Below are positions 6,614 through 24,000 of a DNA stretch of 24,000 nt, in pieces. The notes under the pieces were generated by a model. That model was not told the DNA's origin, searched no databases, and worked only from the letters and a program-made list of their open reading frames with translations. Source of the DNA: an uncultured Pirellulales bacterium (GTDB lineage Bacteria > Planctomycetota > Phycisphaerae > Sedimentisphaerales > Anaerobacaceae); assembly GCA_964462945.1 (NCBI GenBank), contig CAYWZW010000001.1, positions 123,570 through 147,569 of the forward strand, written 5' to 3'. The stretch's first letter is position 1, and every line of letters begins with the position of its first letter. The translations under genes and the position numbers were made by a program.

Positions 6614-6616
6614 GAA

Positions 6617-6700
6617 CGATTGCCGATCGCCGATTGTGGATTTGCGATTTGAGTCAAGCCAATCGGCATTCGCAAATCAGCAACTGACAATCGCAAATCG
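6617..6700. repeat. dyad-symmetric heptamer array (12 units, 84 nt) filling the lysM-ftsL gap
   Basis: CGATTGC CGATCGC CGATTGT GGATTTG CGATTTG AGTCAAG CCAATCG GCATTCG CAAATCA GCAACTG ACAATCG CAAATCG. The left arm is CGATTnn and the right arm is nnAATCG. It lies between the stop at 6611-6613 and the ATG at 6704. Confidence 0.85.
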
Positions 6701-6940: not shown

Positions 6941-8626
6941 TTGAAAAGCGTTCGAATTACCATCATTGTCTCGCTGCTTTTGATCGGATCATTTCTGGCC
7001 CTGATCGGTCGGTGTTTCTACCTTCAGTACTATCGGGGCGACCATTATATCGATGCTTGCCGTAGACAGCAGGTGTACACGAGTCGGCAACCTCAGCGCG
7101 GTGCGATCCTTGACAGCCGGGGCAGGGTTCTCGCCGCAAGCAATAAGATCCAAGTCATTAAGGCCGAACCTCGAATCATAGATGATCCCAAGGAAGTCTC
7201 AAGCAGGCTCGCTCCCATCATTGATATGGGCGCACACGAAATCTGCAAGCTCATTGTGGACAGAAAGGATAAGCGCTACGTCAGAATCAAGACCGGTGCT
7301 GACCCGTGTGAGTGCAGTCTGGCCGAACGAATTCATCGCGGAATCGCGGTAGAGTCTGATTGGCAAAGGCATTATCCAATGGGATCTCTGGTGGCCAACA
7401 TTGTCGGCTTCACGGATCCCTACAACCGCGGCCTCGAAGGCATTGAGCTGAAATACGACAAAGCCCTTAGCGGTTCGGCCGCCCAAAACGTATTCTTTGC
7501 AGACGTCCGCCGCCGGCCCATTGCCCTCAAACAGCAGGAGGGCGTTCTGACGAACGGCGTTGGAATCATCCTGACCATCGACTCGACCGTCCAGCAGTTC
7601 GTCCGGGAGGAGCTTGTAAAACAGTATGAAAGCTATGAGGCCGAGTCGGCGGTGGCCGTTGTAGCTGAGCCGAAAACGGGGGCCATTCTGGCGATGGTCT
7701 CGCTGCCCGACTTTGACCCTGCGCTGCGGAACTGCGATCCGAACAACTTCCGCAGCCGGGCGATCACGGATTGGTACGAGCCGGGCAGTATCATAAAGCC
7801 GGTCATAGTCGCGATTGCACTGGATGCCGGCGTCGTCAATAGAACCGAGAGAATATTCTGCGAAAACGGAAGCTACTCCGGCAAAGGATTCGGGCGGATC
7901 GGCGAATACCGCGAAGGCTTCGGCGATTTGAGCGTGAGCGAGATTCTCATCAAATCCAGCAATATCGGAATGGCCAAGATCGGACAGAGGCTCGGCAAAG
8001 ATAAGCTTCACAACGGCCTGTCGCTCTTCGGCTTCGGCAAAAAGACGGGCATCGAGCTGCCCGGCGAGGTCGAGGGCCTTCTGAGGCCGGCCGCCCAGTG
8101 GGACGGCTTCAGCGTCACCCGCATCCCGTTCGGCCAGGAAATCTGCGTCACCAGCATGCAATTGGTCCGGGCCTTCTGCATACTCGCCAACGGCGGGCGA
8201 CTCGTGCGCCCTTTTATGGTCAGGGCCATCGTTGACAATGACGGGAAGATTACGGAGCTTAACGAGCCGCCGCCTCCCGTCGGCTACATCATCAGGCCCG
8301 AGGTCGCTAAGTGGATTGTGACCGAGGCCATGGTCGGCGTTGTGACGGACGGAACCGGCAAGAGAGCCAAGCTCGACAAGTGGCAGGTGTTCGGCAAAAC
8401 CGGAACGGCGAACATCGCACGAAGCGACGCAAGAGGGTATTCGGAGAACGATTTCGTCGCGTCCTTTGTCGCCGGCGCCCCGGCCGATGACCCGGCCATC
8501 GTGGTGCTGGTCTCGATCCGCAAGCCGAATCGGGCGCTCGGTAAAGGCTATACAGGCGGCACCGTGGCCGCACCCGTCGCGGCTGAGATAATCGAAAAAA
8601 CGCTCAATTACTTCGGCGTTGAGTAA
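6941..8626 (+). CDS. ftsI: peptidoglycan D,D-transpeptidase FtsI (class B PBP, PBP3-type)
   Basis: N-terminal TM, a PBP dimerisation region, and the transpeptidase motifs SxxK (GSIIKP), SxN (KSSN) and KTG (GKTGTA). TTG start directly after the ftsL stop. Confidence 0.85.
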   Translation: MKSVRITIIVSLLLIGSFLALIGRCFYLQYYRGDHYIDACRRQQVYTSRQPQRGAILDSRGRVLAASNKIQVIKAEPRIIDDPKEVSSRLAPIIDMGAHEICKLIVDRKDKRYVRIKTGADPCECSLAERIHRGIAVESDWQRHYPMGSLVANIVGFTDPYNRGLEGIELKYDKALSGSAAQNVFFADVRRRPIALKQQEGVLTNGVGIILTIDSTVQQFVREELVKQYESYEAESAVAVVAEPKTGAILAMVSLPDFDPALRNCDPNNFRSRAITDWYEPGSIIKPVIVAIALDAGVVNRTERIFCENGSYSGKGFGRIGEYREGFGDLSVSEILIKSSNIGMAKIGQRLGKDKLHNGLSLFGFGKKTGIELPGEVEGLLRPAAQWDGFSVTRIPFGQEICVTSMQLVRAFCILANGGRLVRPFMVRAIVDNDGKITELNEPPPPVGYIIRPEVAKWIVTEAMVGVVTDGTGKRAKLDKWQVFGKTGTANIARSDARGYSENDFVASFVAGAPADDPAIVVLVSIRKPNRALGKGYTGGTVAAPVAAEIIEKTLNYFGVE

Positions 8627-9809: not shown

Positions 9810-10565
9810 TCAGTCCGGCTTCCACCGCAAGCGGTCCAAGCCTTGTGTCTTGACGAATTCCACGTGGGAATCGACAAAGAGGACGTGGCAGCCGTCGGCT
9901 TGGTGGCTGTCGGTGGTCAGGATTTCGGGGCCACCCGCCTGGTTCCAGCCGGGATGCGTCTCGAAGAGCAGCACCATATCAGGCGGGGCGGAGGTCCCAA
10001 GCTCCAACACGTTCTTGTTCATTGCGTAATTGCAGGGGCCTTCCATCGCGCCCCGGCAACTGAACGTCATGCGGTCCACCCCGGCGTGCTCGATAAGCAG
10101 ATCGCACCATTTTGAGCTTGTCGGAAACTTGTCATCGTAATCGTTGGCGTAGATCAGCATGGCCTTGCCGAGGCCGGACATATTCGTGCCGCACGTCATT
10201 CTTTGGGCAAGGTGTTTTGTCCTGACAAGGGCCGGCATCGTAATGCCCAACATCAGCGGCAATATGAACACCCCTGCAACGACCGGCACAACAATCCCCG
10301 TGACGGCAAAACCGTTGCCCCTCAATCTGCCGCCGCTGTTGGCGATCTTCACCAGCCCCACAATCCCTAAGATGATGGCCGGCAGCGCCGTGATGAACAA
10401 GGTGCATAAGCTAAGGATTCCGAGCACGAATGAAGCAATCGCCAGCCCGCTGGTCTTGGCAACCGCGGGGGGCGCTGTTGCAGAAATACTCGGCAGCAGC
10501 CAATTGCACGCGCTACACACCTGGGCGTTATCCGGATTTTCTTTGCCGCATCTTGGACAGTACAT
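9810..10565 (-). CDS. zinc-ribbon / DUF4190 membrane / pseudopilin-like (DUF1559, H-X9-DG-like) protein
   Basis: MYCPRCGKEN..CSACNW (CxxC...CxxC). DUF4190-like helices (LAIASFVLGILSLC...ILGIVGLVKIANSGGRLRGNGFAVTGIVV). A pilin-like core (AQRMTCGTNMSGLGKAMLIYANDYDDKFP). C-terminus HQADGCHVLFVDSHVEFV. AAGGAG lies 7 nt before the ATG. Confidence 0.8.
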   Translation of the reverse strand: MYCPRCGKENPDNAQVCSACNWLLPSISATAPPAVAKTSGLAIASFVLGILSLCTLFITALPAIILGIVGLVKIANSGGRLRGNGFAVTGIVVPVVAGVFILPLMLGITMPALVRTKHLAQRMTCGTNMSGLGKAMLIYANDYDDKFPTSSKWCDLLIEHAGVDRMTFSCRGAMEGPCNYAMNKNVLELGTSAPPDMVLLFETHPGWNQAGGPEILTTDSHQADGCHVLFVDSHVEFVKTQGLDRLRWKPD

Positions 10566-10705
10566 TTTGATTCTCCTTTCGACGGAAGTCTCCTTATTTC
10601 ACTGGTTTCTTGTTTCTTATTTACGACTTATCTGCTATCGCGATACTCTCACCCGCGGCAGTCTTCATTGATAAATCTTGGACTACGATGTTACCTACAT
10701 CTGCA

Positions 10706-11827
10706 TTATTCTCTGCCAGGCCCAGGAGGTTCCATTACTGAGCGGCTACCCTGGCCGTCGTGTACAAGCAATGAATCCGTCCTGTCCTTTGGCTCACTCC
10801 CGATTTGCGGCGGATGGCCATATCGTATGTCTCCGCCGTCCCAGAAGGTGTAGAGATTGTCACCGTTGATACCACAAAACGAGTGTTTTTCAAACTGCAC
10901 GTGGTTGTCCACGAACAAGACATTCTGTCCATCTTCCTGGTGTTGGATTGCGTTGCCGGCCTTGACTGCTCTTCTACCACCGTCCACGCGAAAACCGCCA
11001 GGAAAGTCTTTAGCCTTTGCAGATGGGGAGTCCATCCAGGGATTCCTGTCAGCCGCCGCTGCCAGACTGGGTTCGCTCGACGTGGTCAGGCGATAGAAGC
11101 TAAAAGGTATGTGATACGAGTAGCTGCAATGCTTTTGTGGCTCGGGGCCGAAATCCCAAAAATCAATCAATTCTCGACCACCCATGCCCTCGTCGGTGGG
11201 ATTAAACGCCGTCACCCCAGTATCACCCCAGCAGACGAACGACTTGGGGCTCTCTTTGGCATACTTGACCAGGAGGTAGAAACAGGATGAGATGCTACCC
11301 TGACCTCCGCTGCCGTCCGCGGCCAGGCCGTATGCGACGGACCGATCGTTGGCCTTCCAGTCAGGTATCTGCATGGCCCACGGGCTTTCCTTGCCGCCGG
11401 AACGAGGCAATTGCCCGTCATAATCATTGGCGTAGGTGAGCATCGCCATTCCGATAACGGACAGGTTCGTGGCGCAGGCCAATCGAAACGCTACCTGCCT
11501 CATTCTTAACATCGCCGGCACCACGATCCCACATGATAGAACGATTGGCAACACGACCCCGAGAACGGCGAAGTTTCTTCCGGTCAGTCTGCCACCGCTC
11601 TTTTCTATGAGGATGAAGCTGATAATACCCAAGACTATGGCGGGTACGGCTGTCAGGCCGCAGGTGAAAAGACTCAGGATACCGAGCACGAATGCAGCGT
11701 TGGCCAACCGGCTTGTTCTTGGCACAATATCTCCGGAAGGCATGGGAGCTTCTAACAACTGAGCACCGCAGGATCGGCATACCTGGGCATCAGCGGGGTT
11801 TTCTGTTCCGCATTTTGGACAGTACAT
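10706..11827 (-). CDS. zinc-ribbon / DUF4190 membrane / pseudopilin-like (DUF1559, H-X9-DG-like) protein, longer paralog
   Basis: Same architecture as 9810-10565: MYCPKCGTEN..CRSCGA, AAFVLGILSLFTCG...ILGIISFILIEKSGGRLTGRNFAVLGVVL, FRLACATNLSVIGMAMLTYANDYDGQLP, and HQEDGQNVLFVDNHVQF. GGGAG lies 6-7 nt before the ATG at 11827; the ORF-track TTG at 11848 is less likely. Confidence 0.8.
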   Translation of the reverse strand: MYCPKCGTENPADAQVCRSCGAQLLEAPMPSGDIVPRTSRLANAAFVLGILSLFTCGLTAVPAIVLGIISFILIEKSGGRLTGRNFAVLGVVLPIVLSCGIVVPAMLRMRQVAFRLACATNLSVIGMAMLTYANDYDGQLPRSGGKESPWAMQIPDWKANDRSVAYGLAADGSGGQGSISSCFYLLVKYAKESPKSFVCWGDTGVTAFNPTDEGMGGRELIDFWDFGPEPQKHCSYSYHIPFSFYRLTTSSEPSLAAAADRNPWMDSPSAKAKDFPGGFRVDGGRRAVKAGNAIQHQEDGQNVLFVDNHVQFEKHSFCGINGDNLYTFWDGGDIRYGHPPQIGSEPKDRTDSLLVHDGQGSRSVMEPPGPGRE

Positions 11828-11890
11828 GATATTCTCCCATCGATTCAAAAATCCCGCAAGTCACAGAAAACTCGCGAGCCATCGCGCTTT

Positions 11891-12102: not shown

Positions 12103-14325
12103 TCATTGCGACCGAAGTGAGGTATTCTCCATGACGGGTTTGCCGATGTATCCGGCTTCGATGCAGAACTGGATGATGTCCCGGGCCAAGGGTGCGGCGT
12201 CGCTCGAGCCGTGCTGGCCGCCTTCGACGATGACGGCGATGGCAATCTTTTGGGCGGCGCTATCCTGGGCAAAGCCGGCGAACCAAGCGTGCTCCGGCCG
12301 TTCCGTCGAGCCGGTCTTGCCATAGACTTTCACATCCTCGGCGGCGAGGGTCCGCAGGAAAGGTTCAAACTGGGTGTAAGCCGTGCCGCCCACGTCGTTC
12401 ACTACGGCGCTCATTCCGTCGTAGATGACGGCCAACGTCTCTAAGCGGACGCCCAAATCGATTGCCGATTGCCGATTGCCGGCTGCCGATTGAAGATCGA
12501 AAATCCGTGGCGCAATATAGACGCCTTCTCGCGCGAGGGCCGCCATAGCATTTGCAACCTGCAGTGGCGTGACACGCAGACTGCCCTGGCCGATACCGAA
12601 CATTCGCCTCTCGCCTGGTCGCAGCGGCGGCAGGTCCGCGAAGCTTCGGATGGCCCCTCGCGGAATCGTGCTGGAGATCGTCCCGGACAACTGGTCGAAA
12701 TTCCTGTCCAGCCCACTTAAATTTGAAATTTGAAACTTGAAACTTGAAACTTCCTTGAGAAAGTCGGGCACAAACAAGATGTCCCGCCCATAGCCGAACT
12801 TAAAGAGCCATTGCTGCAAAGCGTTCGGATCGACCCTATCGGCCAAGCGGGAGAAATAAATGTTACAACTGCCCTTGATGGCATTGCGAGCGTTATTTTC
12901 CCACCGATTGTCATGACCCACTCTTGCTCTTCTAAATATCAAGCACTTCGGCCATCCTTCAGGGGGCGCTTCAGGCGGACAACTAATGATTTCTTCCGGG
13001 GTTATATGACCGCTTTCGAGCCCGGCGATGAGAATCAAGGGTTTAACAACCGAGCCGGGCGGATACTCCTCGTTGATCGCCCGGTTAATCAGCGGCTTGC
13101 GCGGGTCGGCCACCAGATCGCCGTAGTCGTAGCGCACGCGGTTCAAATCATAGACGGGCAGTGAAACCAGAGCGAGTATGTCAGACGTCCCGACCTCGAT
13201 TATAACGGCCGACATTCCGGGACCGCAATTCGGATCATGGGGATAGCGAGTCAGGTAGTCTTCTATTCTTTTCTGCAACTCGATGTCCAGCGTCAGCTTA
13301 ACATCGTCGCCGAGCTGAGCTGGGATTTGGTTGACGAGCTGCCGGTCCAAATCTTTGACCTCTTCGCCTCGTCTGCCGCGAAGGACGCCCTCGCAGACGT
13401 ACTCGACGCCGTCCTCTCGTCCGCAAAGCTCGCCCTCCAGATAGCTTAGCAATTCATCGTCCTCGAGAAGCTCTTTATCCCGCTGCTGCGTCGCCGGTCC
13501 GACCCAGCCTATGGTCTGGGCGGCCACCGTGCCGTACGGATAGAACCGGTGCTCCTGCGGCAGAATCGCAACGCCGTCGGTGTCCAGAAATTCCAATTGG
13601 GCGGCAAAGATATCGTCGTCGGTTTGCAGCTCCAGCAGGGGCCAGTTCCTGTGCATTTCCGCAATATCGACTTTGCTCGCAAGCTCACGCCGTTTGACCA
13701 GGTCGGGCTCTTTGGCCTCGAAATCAGCTATGGCCACGGAAAGCGGGACGCCGTTCCTGCTCGCGTAATGGCCAAACACTTCTGAATTCGGGAAGTTTCT
13801 TCGCCACGCTTGAAACGTCCGGCTGTCCCACACCAGATCGTTGACCTTTTGTATTTCGCCTCTGATTTGCGAGGGATCCACTGCTCCCAGCCGGGCACAC
13901 TTGTTGATGATCTGCTCCAAATCTTCGAGCTTGGCGCTGATTTCTTCTTTGGTCTTCGCTATGGTCTTGTCCGGATCGGCTTGGCCGGCGGCCCTGTCAA
14001 GAAGGTTTTGCCGGACCCGTTCATCCAAATATGAGCACAGTCTGTAATTGATATGCACGGAGAACCGGGCTTCATCGATCGCCAGCACTCTGCCGTTTCT
14101 GTCAAGTATTTTGCCGCGAATGGTCTTGAGCTGTTTGGATTGGCCCCTTTGACGCTTGAGTTCGGCGATTTTCTCCTGGACGGATGAGGCGGTCAGTAAT
14201 TGCATCTGTGCCAGGCGGAGCAAACACAGCCCCAGAAGCAAAACGCCGAACATCACAAGAATTTTGACTCGCTTGCTGTACATAATCAGCGCCCACGAAA
14301 GTGGCTTATTCTTATGCCCATCCAC
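12103..14325 (-). CDS. mrdA: penicillin-binding protein 2 (elongasome D,D-transpeptidase MrdA)
   Basis: 740 aa. N-terminal TM and class B PBP motifs SxxK (GSVVKP), SxN (GSCNIY) and KTG (GKTGST). It follows mreBCD. GTG at 14325 overlaps the mreD 3' end; the ATG at 14283 (2 nt after the mreD stop) is an equally plausible start. Confidence 0.85.
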   Translation of the reverse strand: MDGHKNKPLSWALIMYSKRVKILVMFGVLLLGLCLLRLAQMQLLTASSVQEKIAELKRQRGQSKQLKTIRGKILDRNGRVLAIDEARFSVHINYRLCSYLDERVRQNLLDRAAGQADPDKTIAKTKEEISAKLEDLEQIINKCARLGAVDPSQIRGEIQKVNDLVWDSRTFQAWRRNFPNSEVFGHYASRNGVPLSVAIADFEAKEPDLVKRRELASKVDIAEMHRNWPLLELQTDDDIFAAQLEFLDTDGVAILPQEHRFYPYGTVAAQTIGWVGPATQQRDKELLEDDELLSYLEGELCGREDGVEYVCEGVLRGRRGEEVKDLDRQLVNQIPAQLGDDVKLTLDIELQKRIEDYLTRYPHDPNCGPGMSAVIIEVGTSDILALVSLPVYDLNRVRYDYGDLVADPRKPLINRAINEEYPPGSVVKPLILIAGLESGHITPEEIISCPPEAPPEGWPKCLIFRRARVGHDNRWENNARNAIKGSCNIYFSRLADRVDPNALQQWLFKFGYGRDILFVPDFLKEVSSFKFQISNLSGLDRNFDQLSGTISSTIPRGAIRSFADLPPLRPGERRMFGIGQGSLRVTPLQVANAMAALAREGVYIAPRIFDLQSAAGNRQSAIDLGVRLETLAVIYDGMSAVVNDVGGTAYTQFEPFLRTLAAEDVKVYGKTGSTERPEHAWFAGFAQDSAAQKIAIAVIVEGGQHGSSDAAPLARDIIQFCIEAGYIGKPVMENTSLRSQ
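12454..12507. repeat. heptamer array translated in frame inside mrdA
   Basis: CAAATCG then CGATTGC x3 (12459-12479), CGGCTGC, CGATTGA, AGATCGA, AAATCCG. It is read on the minus strand as PRIFDLQSAAGNRQSAIDLG. Confidence 0.8.
12718..12752. repeat. heptamer array (5 units) translated in frame inside mrdA
   Basis: TAAATTT GAAATTT GAAACTT GAAACTT GAAACTT. It is read on the minus strand as EVSSFKFQISNL. Confidence 0.8.
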
Positions 14326-14777
14326 CAGGCTGACGGCGGAAACAAGAATGGCCCCACGAAGCCAGAGTACAGAGACGTTACAAAAACAACGACATATATG
14401 TTCTGCAAAAGCGGCTCGCTCTTGTTCAGAAAGGCGAGCAGGTGCGTCACGACGCCGACCAGAAGTCCCGTCACAAAGATCGCCATCGCCTGATAGGGCA
14501 TTCGTCTGATGGCGATCACGCGGTGCAGGTACGCCAATAGGGTGCCGAATACGCCAAAACTGATCATGTGGGGACCCATCGGCAAGGGCGAGCCGATGAG
14601 GTCGGCGGCGAAACCGATTGAAAAAGAGCTGATGACGGCGTCCGAGGTATTGAAGTAGATTGCCGAAAACACCAAAACGATAAGCAGCAAATCAGGCTTG
14701 TTATCCCAACGGGCCAGCACGCCTTTTTGCAAAACGGTCACGGTAAGAATTAGAACTGCAAACCGAAGCCATCGCAT
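14286..14777 (-). CDS. mreD: rod shape-determining protein MreD
   Basis: 163-aa polytopic membrane protein located between mreC and mrdA. GAGGA lies 6 nt before the ATG. The call rests on synteny and topology. Confidence 0.7.
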   Translation of the reverse strand: MRWLRFAVLILTVTVLQKGVLARWDNKPDLLLIVLVFSAIYFNTSDAVISSFSIGFAADLIGSPLPMGPHMISFGVFGTLLAYLHRVIAIRRMPYQAMAIFVTGLLVGVVTHLLAFLNKSEPLLQNIYVVVFVTSLYSGFVGPFLFPPSAWWMGIRISHFRGR

Positions 14778-14805
14778 TCTGTTTCCTCAGCCGGTTCAAA
14801 CCTGA

Positions 14806-15606
14806 CTACTTCTGCGGATTCATGATGATCACGGCTACGTCCTCGAGATTCTGTATGTCACAAGCCGGTTCGACCGTTATGTCCCAGACCGAGGCATTCC
14901 GGGTGTTCCTTTCACACCGGGACACTTTGCCCACGATAATCGGGGCGTCCAGGAATCCCCCCTCCTTCAGCTTCTTCAGCGCGAAAACGTTCTCTCCGAC
15001 CTTAACTTCGTTCTTGATCTTGAGCATCTCAATCCGGGCGGTATAGTTGCCGTTGCCCGTCATGATGGTTTTTACCCCCGCAACCTCGACGGGTATCTTG
15101 GACGTCGAGTCGGTAATCAGCTTAACCTGGGCTTTGGCCAGTTGGGGAAAAACGTCGGAAATCGTCCCGACGACACTTTCGTCGCCCAAGACGTACTGGC
15201 CCTTCGCCAGGCCGTCGGGCTTGCGGCAGTCTATCGTCAGCTCGTTGATCGTCGCCGTGATGACGTCAGCCACCGCGAAATCCGCGCCTTCCCAAACATA
15301 GGTATTGTGCAGTCCGTACAGCTTCTCGAACTTGCTGACCTGTTCATTGAGCGTTTGCTGAAGGTTCGCCACATAGTTGCGATATTGGGTCTGGCCGCGA
15401 TCCACAGCACCTTCCGTCGGCGGCTGCGTGCGTGCCGTCAGCGCGACGTTGCCGCCGAGACTCAAAGGCCACCGAAAAACGTGCACGAACGCGAGCTGGA
15501 ATTTTCCGGTAAACTCTTGCGGGGCAAACAGCAGGATCAGCCCGGTCAACATAAACCAGGTAAACAACATTCTCCGCGAGACTTTTGTATGCTTCCTTGC
15601 CATCAT
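14806..15606 (-). CDS. mreC: rod shape-determining protein MreC
   Basis: Start at MMARKHTKVSRRMLFTWFMLTGLILLF (basic N-terminus plus TM), then a coiled coil and two beta-barrel-like repeats. The ORF-track start at 15759 would overlap 100 nt of mreB and adds non-MreC-like sequence. Confidence 0.8.
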   Translation of the reverse strand: MMARKHTKVSRRMLFTWFMLTGLILLFAPQEFTGKFQLAFVHVFRWPLSLGGNVALTARTQPPTEGAVDRGQTQYRNYVANLQQTLNEQVSKFEKLYGLHNTYVWEGADFAVADVITATINELTIDCRKPDGLAKGQYVLGDESVVGTISDVFPQLAKAQVKLITDSTSKIPVEVAGVKTIMTGNGNYTARIEMLKIKNEVKVGENVFALKKLKEGGFLDAPIIVGKVSRCERNTRNASVWDITVEPACDIQNLEDVAVIIMNPQK

Positions 15607-15658
15607 CGCACGTCGTGTGTCTTCTATGCAACAGGCATCGCGCGCCGCCGGCGACGAA

Positions 15659-16714
15659 TCATTCCCATCCGTACTCGTTGTGGTCCATGGTATCTTTCCA
15701 CAGCTCCAGATTCTCCAGATAGACGCTGGTGCCGCGCGCCACACTGCTGAGCGGGTCATCCACGGTTTGGACCTTCAGGCCGGTCGCATTGGCCAGAACG
15801 GTATCCATACCTCGCAGCAGTGAGCCGCCGCCGCAGATGTGGATGCCGTTGTCAATGAGGTCCGCCGCCAGTTCCGGCTCGGCTTTTTCCAGTGTGCCGG
15901 TCACCGCGTCGATAATCGCGGCGACCGGATCGCGCAGGGCCTCGCGGATTTCCTCGCTGGTGATCACGATTTTTCTCGGCAGGCCCGATATGGTGTCCCG
16001 CCCGGCGATCTCCATCGTCAATTCCTCTTCCAGCGGAGCGGCCGAGCCGATCTGGATCTTGACCTTCTCAGCTCGTGGCTCACCGATCAGAAGGTTATAG
16101 GTTTTCTTGAGGTGGTTGATCACCGCTTCGTCCATATCGTCGCCGCCGATGCGGATGGACGTGGCGGTGGCAATGTCGGCCAGACTCATGATCGCCACTT
16201 CGGTAGTCCCCCCGCCGATATCGACAATCATCGAAGCGGTAGGGTCGGTAATGGGCAGCCCCGCTCCGATTCCCGCCGCCATCGGCTCAGCGACCAGATA
16301 GACTTTGCGGGCGCCCGCACGTTCAGCACTATCGATAACCGCCCGGCGTTCGACGGCGGTGATCCCGCTTGGCACAGCAATGACCACCCGGGGCCTGACG
16401 AGTCCGCCCCGGCCGTGGACTTTCCGGATGAAGTAGCTCAACATCGCTTCGGTGATCTCGAAGTCGCTGATCACGCCGTCCTTGAGAGGCCGGATGGCAC
16501 TAATCGAGCCCGGCGTCTTGCCTAACATTTCACGCGCCACCAGCCCGACGGCTTGCCCGTTGTTCAGGACGATGTTGGTTCCTTTGCGGACGGCAACGAC
16601 GGAGGGTTCATTGAGGACAATACCTTTGCCGCGGACACAAACGAGGGTCGTACACGTTCCAAGGTCGATACCCATGTCCATGCTGAACCAACCTAAGATT
16701 GTGTCCAATAGCAC
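15659..16714 (-). CDS. mreB: rod shape-determining actin homolog MreB
   Basis: GIDLGTCTTLV (phosphate 1), DIGGGTTEVA (phosphate 2), GGGSLLRG. AAGGAG (16726-16721) lies 6 nt before the GTG at 16714. The TTG at 16744 from the ORF track lacks a properly spaced SD. Confidence 0.9.
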   Translation of the reverse strand: MLLDTILGWFSMDMGIDLGTCTTLVCVRGKGIVLNEPSVVAVRKGTNIVLNNGQAVGLVAREMLGKTPGSISAIRPLKDGVISDFEITEAMLSYFIRKVHGRGGLVRPRVVIAVPSGITAVERRAVIDSAERAGARKVYLVAEPMAAGIGAGLPITDPTASMIVDIGGGTTEVAIMSLADIATATSIRIGGDDMDEAVINHLKKTYNLLIGEPRAEKVKIQIGSAAPLEEELTMEIAGRDTISGLPRKIVITSEEIREALRDPVAAIIDAVTGTLEKAEPELAADLIDNGIHICGGGSLLRGMDTVLANATGLKVQTVDDPLSSVARGTSVYLENLELWKDTMDHNEYGWE

Positions 16715-16783
16715 GTTCGACTCCTTTCTGAATATCCGATACAAACCTTTGCAGAGGTAAGGATTTCTGATCGGCTATTTCTC

Positions 16784-17025: not shown

Positions 17026-17907
17026 TCACAAATTAGTGTTGACCTGGTCGTTGACTCTCGGCTGATGTTCGGGCGCATCGGCAAGCAGCTCAAGCCAGCC
17101 GACCGCCTTTTCGGGTTCGACGTCCAAAATCACAACGTCGCAAACGAACTTGTCGCTGCGGGTGGCATGGAATCGCATCCCTTCCTTGACGCCGTCCGCC
17201 TCACCAATGGATATTTCGGCCAGAAGGTTCTTCATGTCCACCACGGTGATCAACCCCTTCAAGTCGATGTTTTGGGTGGGAGGCGCCACGCGAGCGTCCT
17301 CTTTCATCGCCGTGACCGCAACGGCCGGAGCAACAACCTTACCATACTCCCGCAGAATCCCGTCGAGCTTATTCTGAAGTTCGGTCTTTTCTTCGAGCAG
17401 ACGTTTCGATTTGTCCTCCAGCACGCTTATAATCGCCATTTTCTCCAGAAGAGCGGTTGAGGTCTGTTCGTGTTCGGCTCGTTCCTTGATCAGCTCAGCC
17501 GTGGTTTTCTGCTGCTCGGCGATGGCACTGTTTCTTAACTGGTCGTTTGTTTCGATAGTCTTGGAGAAATCCTTTACCACCGCTTCCCAGCCGTCTGCTT
17601 TTCGTTGAGCATCGTCTCTGGCTATTTCAGCCTGCTTGAGTTTCGCCTCCAGACTCCCAATCTCCTGCTGGAGTGCGCCAACCTTCTCGCCAAGTGCCAG
17701 CTTTTCCTCATCCGTCTTGCTTTTCAACTCGTTAAACTGCTTGTTGGCGTTGTTTTCACTCTGCTTGGCAGCCTGAAACCCGCTGTAAAGCCCGTCGTAT
17801 TTCTCTTTGTAGTCAACAGCGCTGGCGACGTATGTTACCACAATACCGCAGAGAAAAATTGAGGCGATTGTAAGCAGGACTATTAGGACCTTTGTGAGAG
17901 TACTCAA
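17026..17907 (-). CDS. N-terminally membrane-anchored coiled-coil protein with a small C-terminal beta-rich domain
   Basis: 293 aa. TM (VLIVLLTIASIFLCGIVVTYVASA), about 170 aa of heptad-rich K/E/Q/A sequence, then LITVVDMKNLLAEISIGEADGVKEGMRFHATR..VCDVVILDVEPEKAVGWL. TTG start with AGGAGG 5 nt upstream. No family recognised. Confidence 0.7.
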   Translation of the reverse strand: MSTLTKVLIVLLTIASIFLCGIVVTYVASAVDYKEKYDGLYSGFQAAKQSENNANKQFNELKSKTDEEKLALGEKVGALQQEIGSLEAKLKQAEIARDDAQRKADGWEAVVKDFSKTIETNDQLRNSAIAEQQKTTAELIKERAEHEQTSTALLEKMAIISVLEDKSKRLLEEKTELQNKLDGILREYGKVVAPAVAVTAMKEDARVAPPTQNIDLKGLITVVDMKNLLAEISIGEADGVKEGMRFHATRSDKFVCDVVILDVEPEKAVGWLELLADAPEHQPRVNDQVNTNL

Positions 17908-19233: not shown

Positions 19234-21071
19234 TTGACCACCTTGCCAAACGAGTTCTTCCCCTTCCGGCGATGGAAAAACCTCACCGAAAGCGGCACTA
19301 TTATGAGCAGAATAACACACAGCTCACAACAAAAATCCAGCCATTCGCCGTATTTGCTGAAAAAAGTCGCTCTCTTGTCGATAGGCACCTTGTCCATGAG
19401 CCACCCGGCCATACCCGTTCGTGCCATCGCCTCTTGCGGCAAGGTTCCGCCCACGTACCCGTCTCGAACGCGCCCGAGGCTGTCGATCACACAGCTTATG
19501 CCGGTATTCACGCTTCGCAGCACGGCAAGCCTGTTCTCCACGGCCCTGAAAGCGCAGACCGCGGCGTGCTGAGGAAGCTCCTCGCTGGGCAAGACTTGTT
19601 CATCTTTGAACCGGACAAACCAGCCGTCGTTGCTTATGTTCACAAGCCAGTCGAGCCTCTTTTGCCCATGCTCGTCCAGGGCAAATCGCCGGGCAATCGC
19701 CGGGACGGTGTCCTCATAACAAATCATGACGCCGAATCTGTGAACTCGATTATTTTCTGCCACCAAGACACCAAGACCCGAAGAATCATTTTGTTTCTTA
19801 TCTATATCTAATTGGCTTTGTGACTTCGTGACTTCGTGGCTAATCTCCTCATATTCGCGCCCGGCCATTTCAAACACCGTGTATTCGCTGCCGTAGTCGA
19901 GCGAGTAATCGAAATTGTAGGGAATGAACTTGACCTTCATCAAAAGCTCATAAAACCACGCCAAGGGCCTGCGTAACGGCAGCACCTCCCCGAAGGGCAC
20001 CAGGTGAATCTTGTCGTACCGCTTTGCGTCCCGCTGTCCATCGGGCCGGTAGAGAAACGCCGAGTTGTATCTGGCCAGATAGCGGTCTGCGCCGTTTTGT
20101 TGAATCTCGGCGCCGTAGGCGCCCACAAGCACATACGCATTTCCTTGTGCGTGCTCTCCAAGGGCCTTGTCAAAAACTTCATGCTCCTGGGGAGAAACCA
20201 GGAATCGCCATACCGCCGCATCCAAATAAGCCTGCACCATGGTCTCGGGCCAGACAATCAGCTCGGCTCCGGCCGCGACGGCGGCCTTGCTGTGCTCCAT
20301 CAATCCGTTGAACAAATTGTCGCCCGACTCAAACGTCCTCTTCACCGACTGAGGGACGTTCGACTGCAGCGACGCAACCAACGGGCCGGCCTCGACGCAA
20401 TCACCCTCCTGACCGATCCGCCAGCGCCCATAGACGACGGCGGCGACCACCGCGGAACCGACAACGGCAAATGACAATAATGAATATCGAATGTCGAATG
20501 TCAAACGACGAACCTGACGAGCCGCCAAGATCAACTCAGCTAACAGGCCGTTGACCATCGCGATCAGAAACGAGACCCCGCCGGCCCCGAATAGGTCGGC
20601 GATCTGGATGAGCGTGATGTTTTGATATTGGCTGTGCGCCAGGAACCGCCAGAAGAAGCCGCCCAAGAATAAGCCCTGCATCCGTTCGACGCCGACGATT
20701 AACACAGCCGAGGCCAGAAACAACGGAATTTTCTTTATCCGGCAATAACGCAGGCAAAGGGCCAGGATGGGCCACAGCAAAGCGGTGTACAGGCAAAAGA
20801 CCAGCCAGCCGACAATCGTCACCGGAGCGACCCAGTAGAGATTACCCAGCCAGTAGAATAGCGAAACAACATAGCTCACAAAAAACAGACGCCGCGGCTT
20901 CGCTTCGGGTGAGCTGGCCAGAATAAAGGGCACGAACGACACCCACGCTAACGGCGCCCAGCCTATCGGCGCCTGGATCACCGTCAGCATCACCGCACTG
21001 ACCACCAGGAAGATTTTCGATTTTCGATCGGCAATCGGCATTCGGCAATCGGCATTCGGCGAGATCTTCAT
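19230..21071 (-). CDS. lnt: apolipoprotein N-acyltransferase Lnt
   Basis: Polytopic N-terminal half plus a CN-hydrolase domain with the E-K-C triad context (LIVWPE; YDKIHLVPFGE; VMICYED). At 613 aa it is longer than typical Lnt, owing to repeat-derived segments. The ATG overlaps the methyltransferase TGA as ATGA, and GAGGA lies 7 nt upstream. Confidence 0.85.
   Translation of the reverse strand: MKISPNADCRMPIADRKSKIFLVVSAVMLTVIQAPIGWAPLAWVSFVPFILASSPEAKPRRLFFVSYVVSLFYWLGNLYWVAPVTIVGWLVFCLYTALLWPILALCLRYCRIKKIPLFLASAVLIVGVERMQGLFLGGFFWRFLAHSQYQNITLIQIADLFGAGGVSFLIAMVNGLLAELILAARQVRRLTFDIRYSLLSFAVVGSAVVAAVVYGRWRIGQEGDCVEAGPLVASLQSNVPQSVKRTFESGDNLFNGLMEHSKAAVAAGAELIVWPETMVQAYLDAAVWRFLVSPQEHEVFDKALGEHAQGNAYVLVGAYGAEIQQNGADRYLARYNSAFLYRPDGQRDAKRYDKIHLVPFGEVLPLRRPLAWFYELLMKVKFIPYNFDYSLDYGSEYTVFEMAGREYEEISHEVTKSQSQLDIDKKQNDSSGLGVLVAENNRVHRFGVMICYEDTVPAIARRFALDEHGQKRLDWLVNISNDGWFVRFKDEQVLPSEELPQHAAVCAFRAVENRLAVLRSVNTGISCVIDSLGRVRDGYVGGTLPQEAMARTGMAGWLMDKVPIDKRATFFSKYGEWLDFCCELCVILLIIVPLSVRFFHRRKGKNSFGKVVK
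19761..19838. repeat. AT-rich palindromic insert with 8-nt tandem arms, in frame in lnt (78 nt = 26 codons)
   Basis: Left arm CACCAAGA x2 (19761-19776). Right arm GTGACTTC x2 plus GTG (19820-19838). The reverse complement of the right arm matches the left arm at 13 of 17 positions. The centre is AT-rich. Confidence 0.6.
20482..20516. repeat. heptamer array (GAATATC type) translated in frame in lnt
   Basis: GAATATC GAATGTC GAATGTC, then degenerate AAACGAC GAACCTG. It is read on the minus strand as RRLTFDIRYSLL. Confidence 0.6.
21012..21060. repeat. heptamer array (7 units) encoding the first ~20 residues of Lnt
   Basis: GATTTTC GATTTTC GATCGGC AATCGGC ATTCGGC AATCGGC ATTCGGC. It is read on the minus strand as MKISPNADCRMPIADRKSKIF. 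Confidence 0.85.
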
Positions 21072-22060
21072 TCTAAATCCTCTAAAGCCGTCGCCATTTC
21101 TTTTGTGCTATAGTGCTTGCGGTTGCTCATCCGCACCGTAAATTGACTGGTAAAAAGCCTTAAGAGATTTCTGTCGGCGGCGATTTCTCGCGGTGGTATT
21201 TGCATGTCACGTGAGAGCCGTTTGACCTCATCCAGCTCCGCTTTCGATTTGCGATTTGCGATTTGCGATTTGCGATTTTCAATCGGCAATCGGCAGTCGG
21301 CAATCGGCAGTCGCCAATCGGCCTTCAATCGGGCCAGACGTCTGTCTGAATTCTCGACGTACGTCTGCGATATTTCGACGCCGACATAGTTTCGGCCCAG
21401 TTGATACGCTGCTGCTGCGGTGGTCCCGGAGCCGCTAAAGGGATCCAGCACGCAGTCTCCCGGATTAGAGCTTGCCGCGATGATCCTCTTGAGCAGGCCC
21501 TCCGGCATCTGACAGGGATGCCAGCCGGCACGTTCCTTAAACGTCCCACAGACCCGCGAGTATCCGTCCCACACGTCATCCGGCATTTTTCCCGCGGGGT
21601 TGGCGCGTCTGTCGTTATAGATAAGCTGTCGGTCCGAAGGCACGCGCACGGCCCGGTCATTGAACGTGAAGTGCTTATGGTCATGGGCGAAGTAAAAGAT
21701 GTGCGTGTGCGCTCGTGCGAATTTGTTTTTCGTCTGCTGGCCGAAGGTGTAGTGCCATATTATCCAGTTCCGCATGAAAAGGCCCAGCTCGTCGGCTATG
21801 ATTTTGACATGGGCGGCGTAGTCATCGCCGATGGCTATGTAGAATGAGCCGTGCGGCTTCAAGACCTTCTTGCAGACGGCCATCCACTCTCTCGTCCAGG
21901 CAACGTATTTGTCGGTGGTGACTTCATCGTGGTACTTGTCGTATTTGTAGCCGATATTGAACGGCGGATCGGCAAAGATCAGGTCCGCAAAAGGCTCCCT
22001 GACCTCGCCCAGCACCTCGATACAATCGCCGCATATAATCCTGTTGAGAAGCTCTTGCAT
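21068..22060 (-). CDS. orphan beta-class DNA methyltransferase (N6_N4_Mtase family, DPPF motif, probably N6-adenine)
   Basis: Motif IV (IFADPPFN) precedes motif I (LDPFSGSGTT), which is beta-class order. HPCQMPEGLLKRII is also present. No restriction endonuclease is adjacent. The C-terminal part is a repeat-encoded linker plus a tail of about 57 aa. Confidence 0.85.
   Translation of the reverse strand: MQELLNRIICGDCIEVLGEVREPFADLIFADPPFNIGYKYDKYHDEVTTDKYVAWTREWMAVCKKVLKPHGSFYIAIGDDYAAHVKIIADELGLFMRNWIIWHYTFGQQTKNKFARAHTHIFYFAHDHKHFTFNDRAVRVPSDRQLIYNDRRANPAGKMPDDVWDGYSRVCGTFKERAGWHPCQMPEGLLKRIIAASSNPGDCVLDPFSGSGTTAAAAYQLGRNYVGVEISQTYVENSDRRLARLKADWRLPIADCRLPIENRKSQIANRKSKAELDEVKRLSRDMQIPPREIAADRNLLRLFTSQFTVRMSNRKHYSTKEMATALEDLE
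21245..21332. repeat. dyad-symmetric heptamer array translated in frame in the methyltransferase gene
   Basis: CGATTTG x4, CGATTTT, then CAATCGG CAATCGG CAGTCGG CAATCGG CAGTCGC CAATCGG (11 in-phase units, 21245-21321), plus an extra CAATCGG at 21326-21332. It is read as ADWRLPIADCRLPIENRKSQIANRKSK. Confidence 0.9.
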
Positions 22061-22226: not shown

Positions 22227-22931
22227 CTACTGACTCTGGCGAGGCTTGATGGCTTTTTGTTCGTTGAAGACCCGGCCGGTGAGGTAATCGGTGAAGGTGA
22301 CCTTGACCGTCAAGGGCCCATCTCCCGATGCGTCGGGGTCGATTTTTGCGGCGACGTCGAACGTCAATCTGTAGTTGATGGTCAGCACGGTGTCAAACCA
22401 GAGCTTTCTAAGCTCACCCGAAGTCACGTGCCACTGGCCGAGCAGGGCGCCGTCTTGCGTCTTGTTCAGGTCCCAGAGCTGGACGTCCACGTCGCCGGCG
22501 GCCTTTATTTTATCGCCCTCCTCGTCCATCGGCTGGATATAGACAATCAGCTTTTCCTTCTTGCCGTCATTGTCCTTGTCGTAGAAGCCCGTGTATCTGC
22601 CGATCTTGACGCTCGTAAGACGCCGGAGGTTTTCGAGCTTGACCTGCTCGGGCAGGCCGGAGAGGACCTGCACCTGCTCTTTGAGCTGCTTGTTTTCGGC
22701 CTGGGACTGGTCGATTTGCTCCTGCTGTTGGGTCTTTTCCTGCGTCAACTGCTCAATTTGTGCAGCCAGCGCGTCTTTTTCCTGCGTGTTCTGGCAGCCC
22801 GCAAGGGACAGAACACAGAACACAAAAGGCAGGACTAAGAATATCGAATATCGAATAACGAATTTCCAAGTCAGAAGTTCTTGAATCAGCGTTCGATATT
22901 CGATATTGGACATTCGATATTGGACATTCAT
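22227..22931 (-). CDS. lipoprotein with coiled-coil segment and C-terminal beta-rich domain
   Basis: Perfect lipobox LSLAGC. A Q/E-rich coiled coil ([32 protein letters not shown]) is followed by a globular domain. The ATG at 22931 overlaps the clpP TGA as ATGA. The long pre-lipobox N-terminus is repeat-encoded. The only other ATG start (M7) has no SD. Confidence 0.65.
22839..22929. repeat. dyad-symmetric heptamer array (13 units, 91 nt; GAATATC / GATATTC arms)
   Basis: GAATATC GAATATC GAATAAC GAATTTC CAAGTCA GAAGTTC TTGAATC AGCGTTC GATATTC GATATTG GACATTC GATATTG GACATTC. The arms are mutual reverse complements. It covers codons 1-31 of the lipoprotein. Confidence 0.85.
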
Positions 22932-23581: not shown

Positions 23582-23601
23582 TTGCTACTCCTGTGTGAGA
23601 A

Positions 23602-23685
23602 GATTTTCGATCTGCGAATGCCGATTTTCGATTTGCGATCGGCAATCGGCAAGCGGCAATCGGCAAGCGGCAATCGGCAATCGCC
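23602..23685. repeat. dyad-symmetric heptamer array (12 units, 84 nt) filling the clpP-clpP gap
   Basis: GATTTTC GATCTGC GAATGCC GATTTTC GATTTGC GATCGGC AATCGGC AAGCGGC AATCGGC AAGCGGC AATCGGC AATCGCC. A further GCAATCG lies at 23691-23697. Confidence 0.9.
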
Positions 23686-23699
23686 CCTTGGCAATCGCG

Positions 23700-24000
23700 T
23701 TACTTCTTTTCGTCCTTTTTCTCTTTATCTTTTTCTGCACGTTTTTCTTTGTCTTCTTCCTGCAGCACCTCGTCGATCAGGCCGTATTCGTGCGCCTCCT
23801 GGGCCGTCATGTATCTGTCTCTCTCGGTCTCAGCGATGATTCTCTCGACCGGCTGGCCCGTGTGTTTGGCGAGAATTTCATTGATCATTTTCTTGGCTTT
23901 GAGGATCTCTTCGGCCTGGATTTTGATATCGGCCGCCTGGCCGCTCACTCCGCCCCAGGGCTGGTGAAGCATCACTTTGGCGTGCGAAAGGGCGTGTCGT
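23700..24000 (-). CDS. clpP: ClpP proteolytic subunit (first copy), 5'-truncated by the window end
   Basis: The frame is open to position 24000. ...[34 protein letters not shown]...[22 protein letters not shown] is the ClpP C-terminal half (His and Asp contexts). It ends in the K/E-rich tail [19 protein letters not shown]. Confidence 0.85.

Follow-up and report, generated by a model that had tools for sequence, protein, structure and literature searches.

The DNA examined here, a stretch of 24,000 nt referred to as the window (contig CAYWZW010000001.1 of assembly GCA_964462945.1, positions 123,570 to 147,569; all coordinates below are positions in the window), carries on its reverse strand a gene for PBP2 (MrdA), a class B penicillin-binding protein. 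Two tandem arrays with a 7-nt unit, array A and array B, are translated in frame within the transpeptidase domain of this protein. The gene, its catalytic motifs and the arrays, which were delimited with Tandem Repeats Finder (TRF), are placed as follows.

12103-14325, reverse strand: PBP2/MrdA gene; the open reading frame from a GTG codon encodes 740 aa
13042-13053, reverse strand: SxxK motif, SVVK (S425-K428), from the translation; invariant in 45 orthologs
12862-12870, reverse strand: SxN motif, SCN (residues 486-488), from the translation; invariant in 45 orthologs
12715-12752, reverse strand: array A; TRF period 7, 5.6 copies, 90% matches; encodes EVSSFKFQISNLS, codons 525-537, in loop 1
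12493-12506, reverse strand: left arm of array B, degenerate (GATTTTC GATCTTC); keeps the register of array B and overlaps the conserved PRIF codons
12459-12492, reverse strand: array B; TRF period 7, 4.9 copies, 85% matches; encodes QSAAGNRQSAID, codons 612-623, in loop 2
12310-12318, reverse strand: KTG motif (residues 670-672), from the translation; invariant in 45 orthologs

The open reading frame matches the Pfam families PBP_dimer (PF03717, E 7e-18) and Transpeptidase (PF00905, E 5e-45), in agreement with the class B layout of an N-terminal anchor and pedestal (PBP_dimer) domain and a C-terminal transpeptidase domain, and the solved structures closest to it in sequence and in fold are those of MrdA from Escherichia coli, Yersinia and Pseudomonas. 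Judged by how its homologs are named, the organism belongs to Sedimentisphaerales (Phycisphaerae, Planctomycetota). Translation likely starts at M15 (ATG at 14283), which would give a protein of 726 aa; other aligned PBP2 orthologs begin at the MYS residues found at this point, and gene callers likewise choose M15. By analogy with other bacteria, the enzyme is presumably essential.

Both arrays lie between the SxN and KTG motifs, as a sequence-only reading of this DNA had claimed; the coordinates agree, and the array peptides quoted in that reading were exact on retranslation. According to TRF, the unit of array A is ACTTGAA on the forward strand and GTTTCAA on the coding strand, and that of array B is CGATTGC on the forward strand and CAATCGG on the coding strand; the two arrays score 54 and 55. 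On the coding strand, array A reads (GTTTCAA)x3 ATTTCAA ATTTAAG, with three perfect units in a row, and array B reads CAATCGG CAGCCGG CAATCGG CAATCGG CAATCGA, with only two. The longer of the quoted peptides, from codons 606-623, is PRIFDLQSAAGNRQSAID. GTTTCAA was found nowhere else in the window and contains a stop codon in the reverse orientation; CAATCGG has no stop codon in any of its six frames and is translated in both orientations within the window. When the gain or loss of 7 or 14 nt was simulated in either array, a stop codon appeared ahead of KTG, as had been predicted for a change of one or two units, whereas a change of 21 nt kept the frame.

Related PBP2 genes were compared in an alignment of 45 orthologous sequences with 65-100% identity, in a map of arrays covering 81 distinct orthologous genes and in a frame check covering 82 genes. 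The alignment contains two segments that vary in both length and sequence: loop 1, which runs from FGYG to RNFxQ, and loop 2, which runs from PR(L/I)F to DLG(V/I). Arrays A and B coincide exactly with these two loops. The 81 mapped genes contain 29 period-7 arrays, 10 in loop 1 (residues 521-538) and 15 in loop 2 (residues 612-619); the two loops together make up about 6% of PBP2 yet hold 25 of the 29 arrays, the remaining four being at residues 10, 121, 559 and 735. The units differ among lineages, with at least eight families in loop 2 (AATCGGC, AAATCTC, AATTTCG, AAATCGG, AATACGC, ATCGAGN, ACGAGCS and GGGACGA), and the units recorded by lineage in PBP2 orthologs also include GCAACGA, CGAGAAT and ACGAGCC. 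In all 82 genes of the frame check, SxN and KTG share one frame.

In orthologs that lack arrays, such as L004-L012, the two loops are 19 and 12 residues long, show no DNA periodicity and are made up of unrelated residues. The segments are therefore lineage-specific, one of the outcomes that the sequence-only reading had foreseen for an ortholog alignment, and non-periodic orthologs do not conserve the same residues. Array A is limited to the species of the window. Array B is also present in an 80%-identical ortholog (L001), at the same length and unit count and with point changes only, and its peptide is common to P0007 and P0011. In another relative, L211 (the P0015 ortholog), loops 1 and 2 are filled not by heptamers but by a 9-nt repeat encoding SDx, which gives SDLSDMSDRSDLSD and SDKSDLSDRS; because both loops carry it, they accept triplet-compatible repeats too.

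The lengths of loop 2 in these relatives form a series. In L055, the base loop of 12 residues (DNA AAGGAAATTCGAAATTCAGATGAA) already contains two copies of GAAATTC, a proto-repeat GAAATTCGAAATTC, and L044, whose loop is equally long, has 2.4 copies. About five copies are present in L013 and L023 (AAATCTC), L045 (AAATCGG/A) and L054 (AATTTCG), all of which have a loop 2 of 19 residues, a gain over L055 of 21 nt, or three units, or seven residues. Loop 2 again differs by seven residues between L073 (13 residues) and L065 (20 residues), and between the window (16 residues) and L210 (23 residues). In L210, the increase is made up of three more GAYTTYC units in the left arm of the CAATCGG composite, the left arm being expanded to four units and loop 2 forming a composite of 4+4 units. 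The loops of L077, which carries a near-perfect array of 12 units, and of L082, which carries a decayed array, are both 39 residues long. A statistic of length steps to the nearest array-free neighbour was noisy, sampling at 70-80% identity being too sparse, so the seven-residue rule is drawn from a few clear pairs. The series fits what would be expected if arrays expanded by local slippage and only frame-preserving lengths survived.

An AlphaFold2 model of the window PBP2, built from the 45-sequence alignment, matches solved PBP2 structures. Most 10-residue blocks of the transpeptidase core have a predicted local distance difference test score (pLDDT) of 83-97, and the elements adjoining the loops have scores of 72-97. 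The score falls below 50 at residues 518-543 and 609-618; it is 35-36 in array A and 46 in array B, the flanks of which score 72-92. In the array-free ortholog P0017, loop 2 is modelled as a short beta-hairpin (pLDDT 84-90) and loop 1 as a short helix and a coil (81 and 58). In the HMMER alignment with E. coli PBP2, residues 515-566 of the window protein remain unaligned, and loop 2 is paired, with gaps, with a longer segment of the E. coli protein. In the models, the site of array A is the helix-to-coil connector after FGYG, and the site of array B is the tip of the beta-hairpin before DLGV. Both segments are thus modelled with low confidence between confident core elements, in line with the structural check that the sequence-only reading had proposed, and they are tolerated, probably disordered segments that may lie at the protein surface.

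The arrays contribute little to the length of the protein, which the sequence-only reading had connected with them on the basis of 740 aa, a figure that becomes 726 aa with the probable start. Relative to array-free relatives, array A adds a net of about eight residues and array B about four. Most of the excess over E. coli PBP2 (633 aa) is instead accounted for by a clade-specific helical insert in the pedestal domain, at residues ~95-225 (window ~13650-14040), which is modelled by AlphaFold2 with a pLDDT of 81-90.

The preference for a 7-nt period extends well beyond this gene. A lag-self-match scan of the window identified six arrays at period 7, four at period 14 (the same arrays) and none at the other periods from 2 to 15, and 30 order-1 (Markov) shuffles of the window for each period yielded no arrays. 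The unit CAATCGGCAATCGG, allowing up to two mismatches, has 22 matches in the window against 0.32 expected. About ten heptamer arrays are present in the 24 kb, with CAATCGG at five loci. Across 82 related PBP2 loci (581 kb), 40 arrays were found at period 7, compared with 24 at period 14 and 0-3 at each other period. Because only period 7 and its double stand out in both the window and the 581 kb, we conclude that Sedimentisphaerales genomes make 7-nt tandem arrays and essentially nothing else of this kind; these arrays are found between genes, at the ends of genes and in permissive protein loops.

Seven conspecific assemblies (L083-L089), obtained from different samples with different pipelines, are 99.7-99.99% identical to the window. 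They differ from it by 1-20 single-nucleotide polymorphisms (SNPs), 10 of them in PBP2, and none of the seven shows a length change in any of the ~10 heptamer arrays covered. The array-encoded segments are also invariant in five cluster members. The only indel that distinguishes the window from its conspecifics is a non-array segment of 27 nt, TTCTGGAGAAAATGGCGATTATAAGCG, at ~17424-17450, which is the sole length difference from L085 over 18 kb. One of the seven, L084 (ENA ERZ25039515 contig_92401), is ~80% identical to the window over part of the transpeptidase region (comparison at 12898-13336) and then 100% identical downstream, including both arrays; upstream it carries unrelated genes, so that the contig must be a chimera of assembly or else a recombinant allele.

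These observations make it likely that arrays A and B are frozen, tolerated loop insertions that arose in frame by slippage. This was one of two branches left by the sequence-only reading, and it is the one sustained by lineage specificity, by the position of the arrays in two hypervariable loops, by the low-confidence model and by invariance in seven assemblies. Heptanucleotide simple sequence repeats (SSRs) would have grown by strand slippage within the PBP2 coding sequence, at what would be the only two sites of the transpeptidase domain where additional residues are tolerated. Because 7 is not a multiple of 3, the ribosome cycles through three phases across the units, successive units being read in all three, and three units give a seven-residue period: VSSFKFQ in array A and QSAIGNR in array B. 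Selection would keep only net changes in multiples of 3 nt, either as three-unit steps of 21 nt or as a slip with a compensating indel, and the unit would have to lack stop codons in the coding orientation. After fixation, the arrays would have gained the point changes that now leave three perfect units in a row in array A and two in array B; such changes would lower slippage, and the arrays would consequently be stable today. They would now be probably disordered and functionally neutral loop filler in an enzyme whose catalytic motifs are intact, and the process that gave rise to them would be clade-wide in Sedimentisphaerales.

Several points weigh against this account. The net inserts relative to the nearest short-loop relatives are +24 and +12 nt, neither of which is a multiple of 21; further indels would have to be assumed. 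The seven conspecific assemblies, which stem from a small number of related studies, are consensus sequences, in which low-frequency variants would be missed. Among assemblies and orthologs, no intermediate out-of-frame allele was seen, and slippage itself went unobserved. The low pLDDT of the loops may partly reflect missing alignment signal. Finally, CAATCGG occurs at five loci in 24 kb, with the same composite of left and right arms, and the unit is also present in at least 120 unrelated metagenome contigs. This recurrence and polarity make pure local slippage from local seeds insufficient; a contribution from copy-paste, from gene conversion or from a generator with a sequence bias is possible, above all for array B. 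The heptamer arrays found elsewhere in the window, which bear on this point, are the following.

6614-6700, no strand assigned: inverted pair (CCGATTG)n(GATTTGC)n ... (CAATCGG)(GCAAATC)n, intergenic, between a LysM-protein gene and a small gene upstream of ftsI
21012-21060, forward strand: (GATTTTC)2(ATCGGCA)5 composite (TRF) at the methylase-lnt junction, covering the first codons and 5′ leader of lnt
21245-21322, forward strand: (CGATTTG)5(CAATCGG)6 composite, encoding on the reverse strand DWRLPIADCRLPIENRKSQIANRKS, part of a DNA methylase's C-terminal linker
22808-22929, forward strand: heptamer arrays ACAGAAC, GAATATC and TTCGATA, in the leader and the 5′ end or N-terminal extension of a lipoprotein gene (lipobox LAGC)
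23602-23683, forward strand: (GATTTKC)n(ATCGGCA)6.6 composite, occupying the spacer that separates two clpP genes

CAATCGG arrays in the window are usually preceded by an array of the GATTTKC type, and at 6614-6700 two such composites face each other. Because the CGATT and AATCG cores are reverse complements, the composites are imperfect inverted arrays. RNA from the pair at 6614-6700 has a predicted fold of -27 kcal/mol (z -1.5). The clpP-clpP spacer (23582-23700) consists almost entirely of heptamer arrays, and its gene-strand RNA folds better than shuffles (-38.3 kcal/mol, z -2.5); the composite may act as a processing or terminator-like hairpin. Two further proteins contain heptamer-encoded segments that are missing from their L001 orthologs: the N terminus of Lnt, MKISPNADCRMPIADRKSKIF (21012-21071, reverse strand), and the methylase segment, which follows the N6_N4_Mtase domain (residues 26-237). 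In L001, the corresponding region of the lipoprotein ortholog carries another array, CTGTMTT.

Beyond the window, exact (CAATCGG)x3 is present in at least 120 metagenome contigs with a G+C content of 40-72%. The 80 of these that were listed (L090-L169) contain 143 period-7 arrays, against at most seven at any other period. Counts in the 75 contigs whose flanks are complete gave 62 copies of CGATT within 70 nt upstream of (CAATCGG)n and five downstream, the background being 0.13 per 70 nt. Of 63 metagenome CAATCGG arrays, 30 sit in frames that continue without a stop for 60 codons or more to either side, a count that we regard as uninformative because long spurious open frames are common at high G+C.

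The recurrence of the composite raises the possibility that array B was not grown in place but pasted in, a preformed (GATTTKC)n(CAATCGG)n composite having been inserted or gene-converted into loop 2 and tolerated there in the manner of a Rickettsia palindromic element (RPE). The composite appears with the same polarity at 21012-21060, 21245-21322 and 23602-23683 and as the inverted pair at 6614-6700, L210 carries its 4+4 unit version in loop 2, and the excess of CGATT upstream of CAATCGG arrays holds across the metagenome contigs. We nevertheless regard such an origin as unlikely. No terminal repeats, target duplication or shared flank beyond the arrays were found. Moreover, part of the left arm is ancestral coding sequence, since this arm coincides in part with the conserved PR(I/L)F codons, and other lineages grow their arrays stepwise in situ from a two-copy seed at the same site. 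Array B also folds no better than shuffles (z -0.69).

A broader alternative, which we entertain only tentatively, is that 7-nt arrays in Sedimentisphaerales and in many uncultured soil and sediment bacteria come not from ordinary slippage but from an active generator with a sequence bias. Such a generator would lay down arrays with a CGATT core followed by arrays with an AATCG core, in fixed polarity and with the potential to form an imperfect hairpin, and would seed them in spacers, leaders and fitting protein loops. The 7-nt register and the preferred units would be set by a dedicated protein or by some feature of the replisome or repair system. If this were true, the generator would continually supply new peptide sequence, even to essential enzymes such as PBP2.

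The loop peptides might instead be functional and under diversifying selection, providing new periplasmic surface loops that, for example, alter partner contacts or allow escape from an inhibitor or toxin. The density of period-7 arrays is 0.164 per kb inside PBP2 against 0.062 per kb in the flanks, and the concentration in two loops, the presence of at least eight unit families and the rapid turnover among orthologs that are 70-80% identical are all consistent with such selection. We consider it improbable, however, that selection of this kind accounts for the arrays. Similar arrays are also found in intergenic DNA, in leaders, in the methylase linker and at the Lnt N terminus; therefore, the occurrence of arrays tracks tolerance and not the function of one protein. 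In addition, the content of the loops lacks conserved residues, many orthologs have loops of 12-19 residues, and the segments are of low confidence in the model. We know of no partner or inhibitor that docks at the PBP2 loops.

The sequence-only reading had also suggested that the arrays are an unusual liability or a switch in an essential gene. The first part of this suggestion stands as a latent liability, since a change of 7 or 14 nt truncates PBP2 before KTG and a change of 21 nt restores the frame. The second, a contingency (phase-variation) locus in which slips of one or two units turn PBP2 off and on in subpopulations, has a precedent in neuO of E. coli K1, which is carried by the CUS-3 prophage. 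The 5′ coding region of neuO contains 3-53 units of an AAGACTC repeat, the gene is ON only if the unit number is divisible by three, and 65.6% of genomes are OFF (PMC13001214). The PBP2 arrays resemble this repeat in that they are in-frame heptamer arrays that permit a full-length product only at a frame-compatible length, with units quantised in threes and a seven-residue period. In contrast to the perfect units at the 5′ end of neuO, which form a highly polymorphic switch of an accessory gene, they consist of about five imperfect units, with at most three (array A) or two (array B) consecutive perfect ones, and are located mid-gene in a housekeeping operon and not at the 5′ end of a surface or modification gene. 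No length change was found in the seven conspecific assemblies despite their SNPs, none of the 82 orthologs is out of frame, and the unit count of array B has not changed since the split from L001. We therefore consider a working switch very unlikely. Although tandem repeats in general can cause misassembly, an assembly or sequencing artefact, or a pseudogene, is almost certainly not the explanation, given identical arrays in seven independent assemblies, an intact open reading frame with all catalytic motifs and orthologs that show the same phenomenon.

Two other candidates were dropped. The first was a structured RNA or a known RNA family: an Rfam gathering scan of the whole window gave no match, and the RNA folds of the two PBP2 arrays are no better than those of shuffles (z -0.69 for array B, as above, and -1.57 for array A); of the arrays folded, only the composite in the clpP spacer attains z -2.5. 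The second was programmed frameshifting. Array A contains A_AAT_TTA (12718-12724, reverse strand), an in-frame heptamer of the canonical -1 frameshift pattern X_XXY_YYZ, and the +1-nt frame at this site meets no stop until about codon 650. However, there is no evident stimulatory structure, and a shift would cost the protein its conserved GIGQG/TPLQ region. The heptamer is probably a by-product of the A/T-rich unit.

The genes that surround PBP2 place it in an elongasome operon, and a second class B penicillin-binding protein is encoded elsewhere in the window.

15659-16744, reverse strand: mreB (Pfam MreB_Mbl), 5′ of PBP2
14806-15759, reverse strand: mreC (Pfam MreC), 5′ of PBP2
14286-14777, reverse strand: mreD (Pfam MreD), directly 5′ of PBP2
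6941-8626, in the window: second class B penicillin-binding protein, FtsI-like

The order mreB-mreC-mreD-PBP2, with the upstream block at 14286-16744, is also found in L001, L085 and L211. At this locus, rodA is not adjacent to PBP2, and the association with mreBCD is present. On the 3′ side of PBP2 (9810-11848, reverse strand) are two paralogous genes with a zinc ribbon, DUF4190 and a C-terminal part resembling planctomycete DUF1559 or prepilin-like proteins; the calls for these genes vary among conspecific contigs (373 + 251 aa versus 345 + 196 aa). Further along the window, residues ~403-443 of Lnt (19742-19862, reverse strand) contain an insert of ~30 residues, EYEEISHEVTKSQSQLDIDKKQNDSSGLGVLVAENNRV, which is absent from L001 and overlaps period-8 repeats identified by TRF at 19761-19777 and 19816-19838; Lnt of L001 has a 42-residue insert elsewhere.

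In kind, the PBP2 arrays are already known: by period, multiplicity and genome-wide spread, they belong to the heptanucleotide SSRs. Like the long simple sequence repeats (LSSRs) with heptanucleotide units, they consist of head-to-tail, exact 7-nt units in at least three copies, beyond chance, and belong to a genome-wide family with few favoured units; another LSSR feature, polymorphism of unit number between strains, was not seen among the seven conspecific assemblies, three-unit differences appearing only between species-level relatives. Among known in-frame repeats, the sequence-only reading had pointed to the RPEs of Rickettsia, which Ogata et al. are said to have described in 2000 as inserted in frame in protein genes. 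RPEs are dispersed palindromic elements of ~100-150 bp that are inserted as a unit. The comparison holds for the outcome, in that selfish or neutral repeat DNA is tolerated in frame at fold-compatible positions in essential proteins, but not for membership, because the PBP2 inserts are tandem 7-nt arrays of 34-38 nt that can grow in situ and have no significant hairpin.

Heptanucleotide repeats are the most abundant class of long SSRs in many bacteria, and polymerase slippage of ~7 nt has been proposed for them (Mrazek 2007, as summarised in PMC4679880 and PMC4692102). The short tandemly repeated repetitive (STRR) or LSSR heptamers of cyanobacteria resemble the present arrays in being head-to-tail 7-nt units of a few to tens of copies, with many arrays per genome, a favoured period of 7, few preferred units and a proposed origin by slippage; they are described there as mainly intergenic and under-represented in coding sequence, whereas the PBP2 arrays are translated in the loops of a folded domain of a housekeeping enzyme (Mazel 1990; Mrazek 2007; as summarised in PMC4679880 and PMC4692102). 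Families in which one heptamer is repeated in tandem across a genome, often near gene ends and in distant taxa, include GGGNATC, a G-quadruplex (G4) heptamer over-represented in the non-coding DNA of Xanthomonas and Nostoc (PMC4692102), and TAACTGA, found in Beggiatoaceae, cyanobacteria and Bacteroidetes and, in Beggiatoaceae, mostly upstream of start codons (PMC4679880). These repeats are G4-forming or stop-rich, essentially non-coding and of proposed regulatory function; CAATCGG, by contrast, is open in six frames and free of G-tracts, and its arrays typically have a partner upstream, an array with the complementary CGATT core. The tandem repeats of Borgs, which are reported to create new intrinsically disordered protein regions (bioRxiv 10.1101/2022.05.18.492195), are similar as rapidly arising in-gene DNA repeats that add low-complexity or disordered segments. 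Borgs are archaeal extrachromosomal elements, whereas the PBP2 arrays have a 7-nt unit, reside in a bacterial chromosome and rotate through three reading phases.

The PBP2 arrays are set apart from known heptamers by being translated in a folded catalytic domain, by occupying the same two loops clade-wide and by showing no strain-level polymorphism. In the searchable literature, no report was found on heptamer repeats in Planctomycetota, Sedimentisphaerales or Phycisphaerae or on units such as CAATCGG and GTTTCAA, which is no proof of novelty. The recurrent in-frame use of such arrays in the loops of a presumably essential enzyme, and the widespread CAATCGG array with a polar inverted partner, are apparently new.

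If the slippage account is right, PBP2 would provide a natural example of the birth of protein loops, in which a non-triplet microsatellite grows, is filtered by frame in steps of three units and seven residues, and finally becomes frozen as point mutations accumulate. In an enzyme that is otherwise 60-80% conserved, these two loops have been refilled many times with unrelated units. For engineering, the arrays map insertion-tolerant sites of the PBP2 transpeptidase domain that would be useful for tagging, and for annotation they are to be treated as real coding sequence and not as frameshift errors. For the biology of the clade, they point to a repeat process that is specific to period 7 and extends across Sedimentisphaerales.

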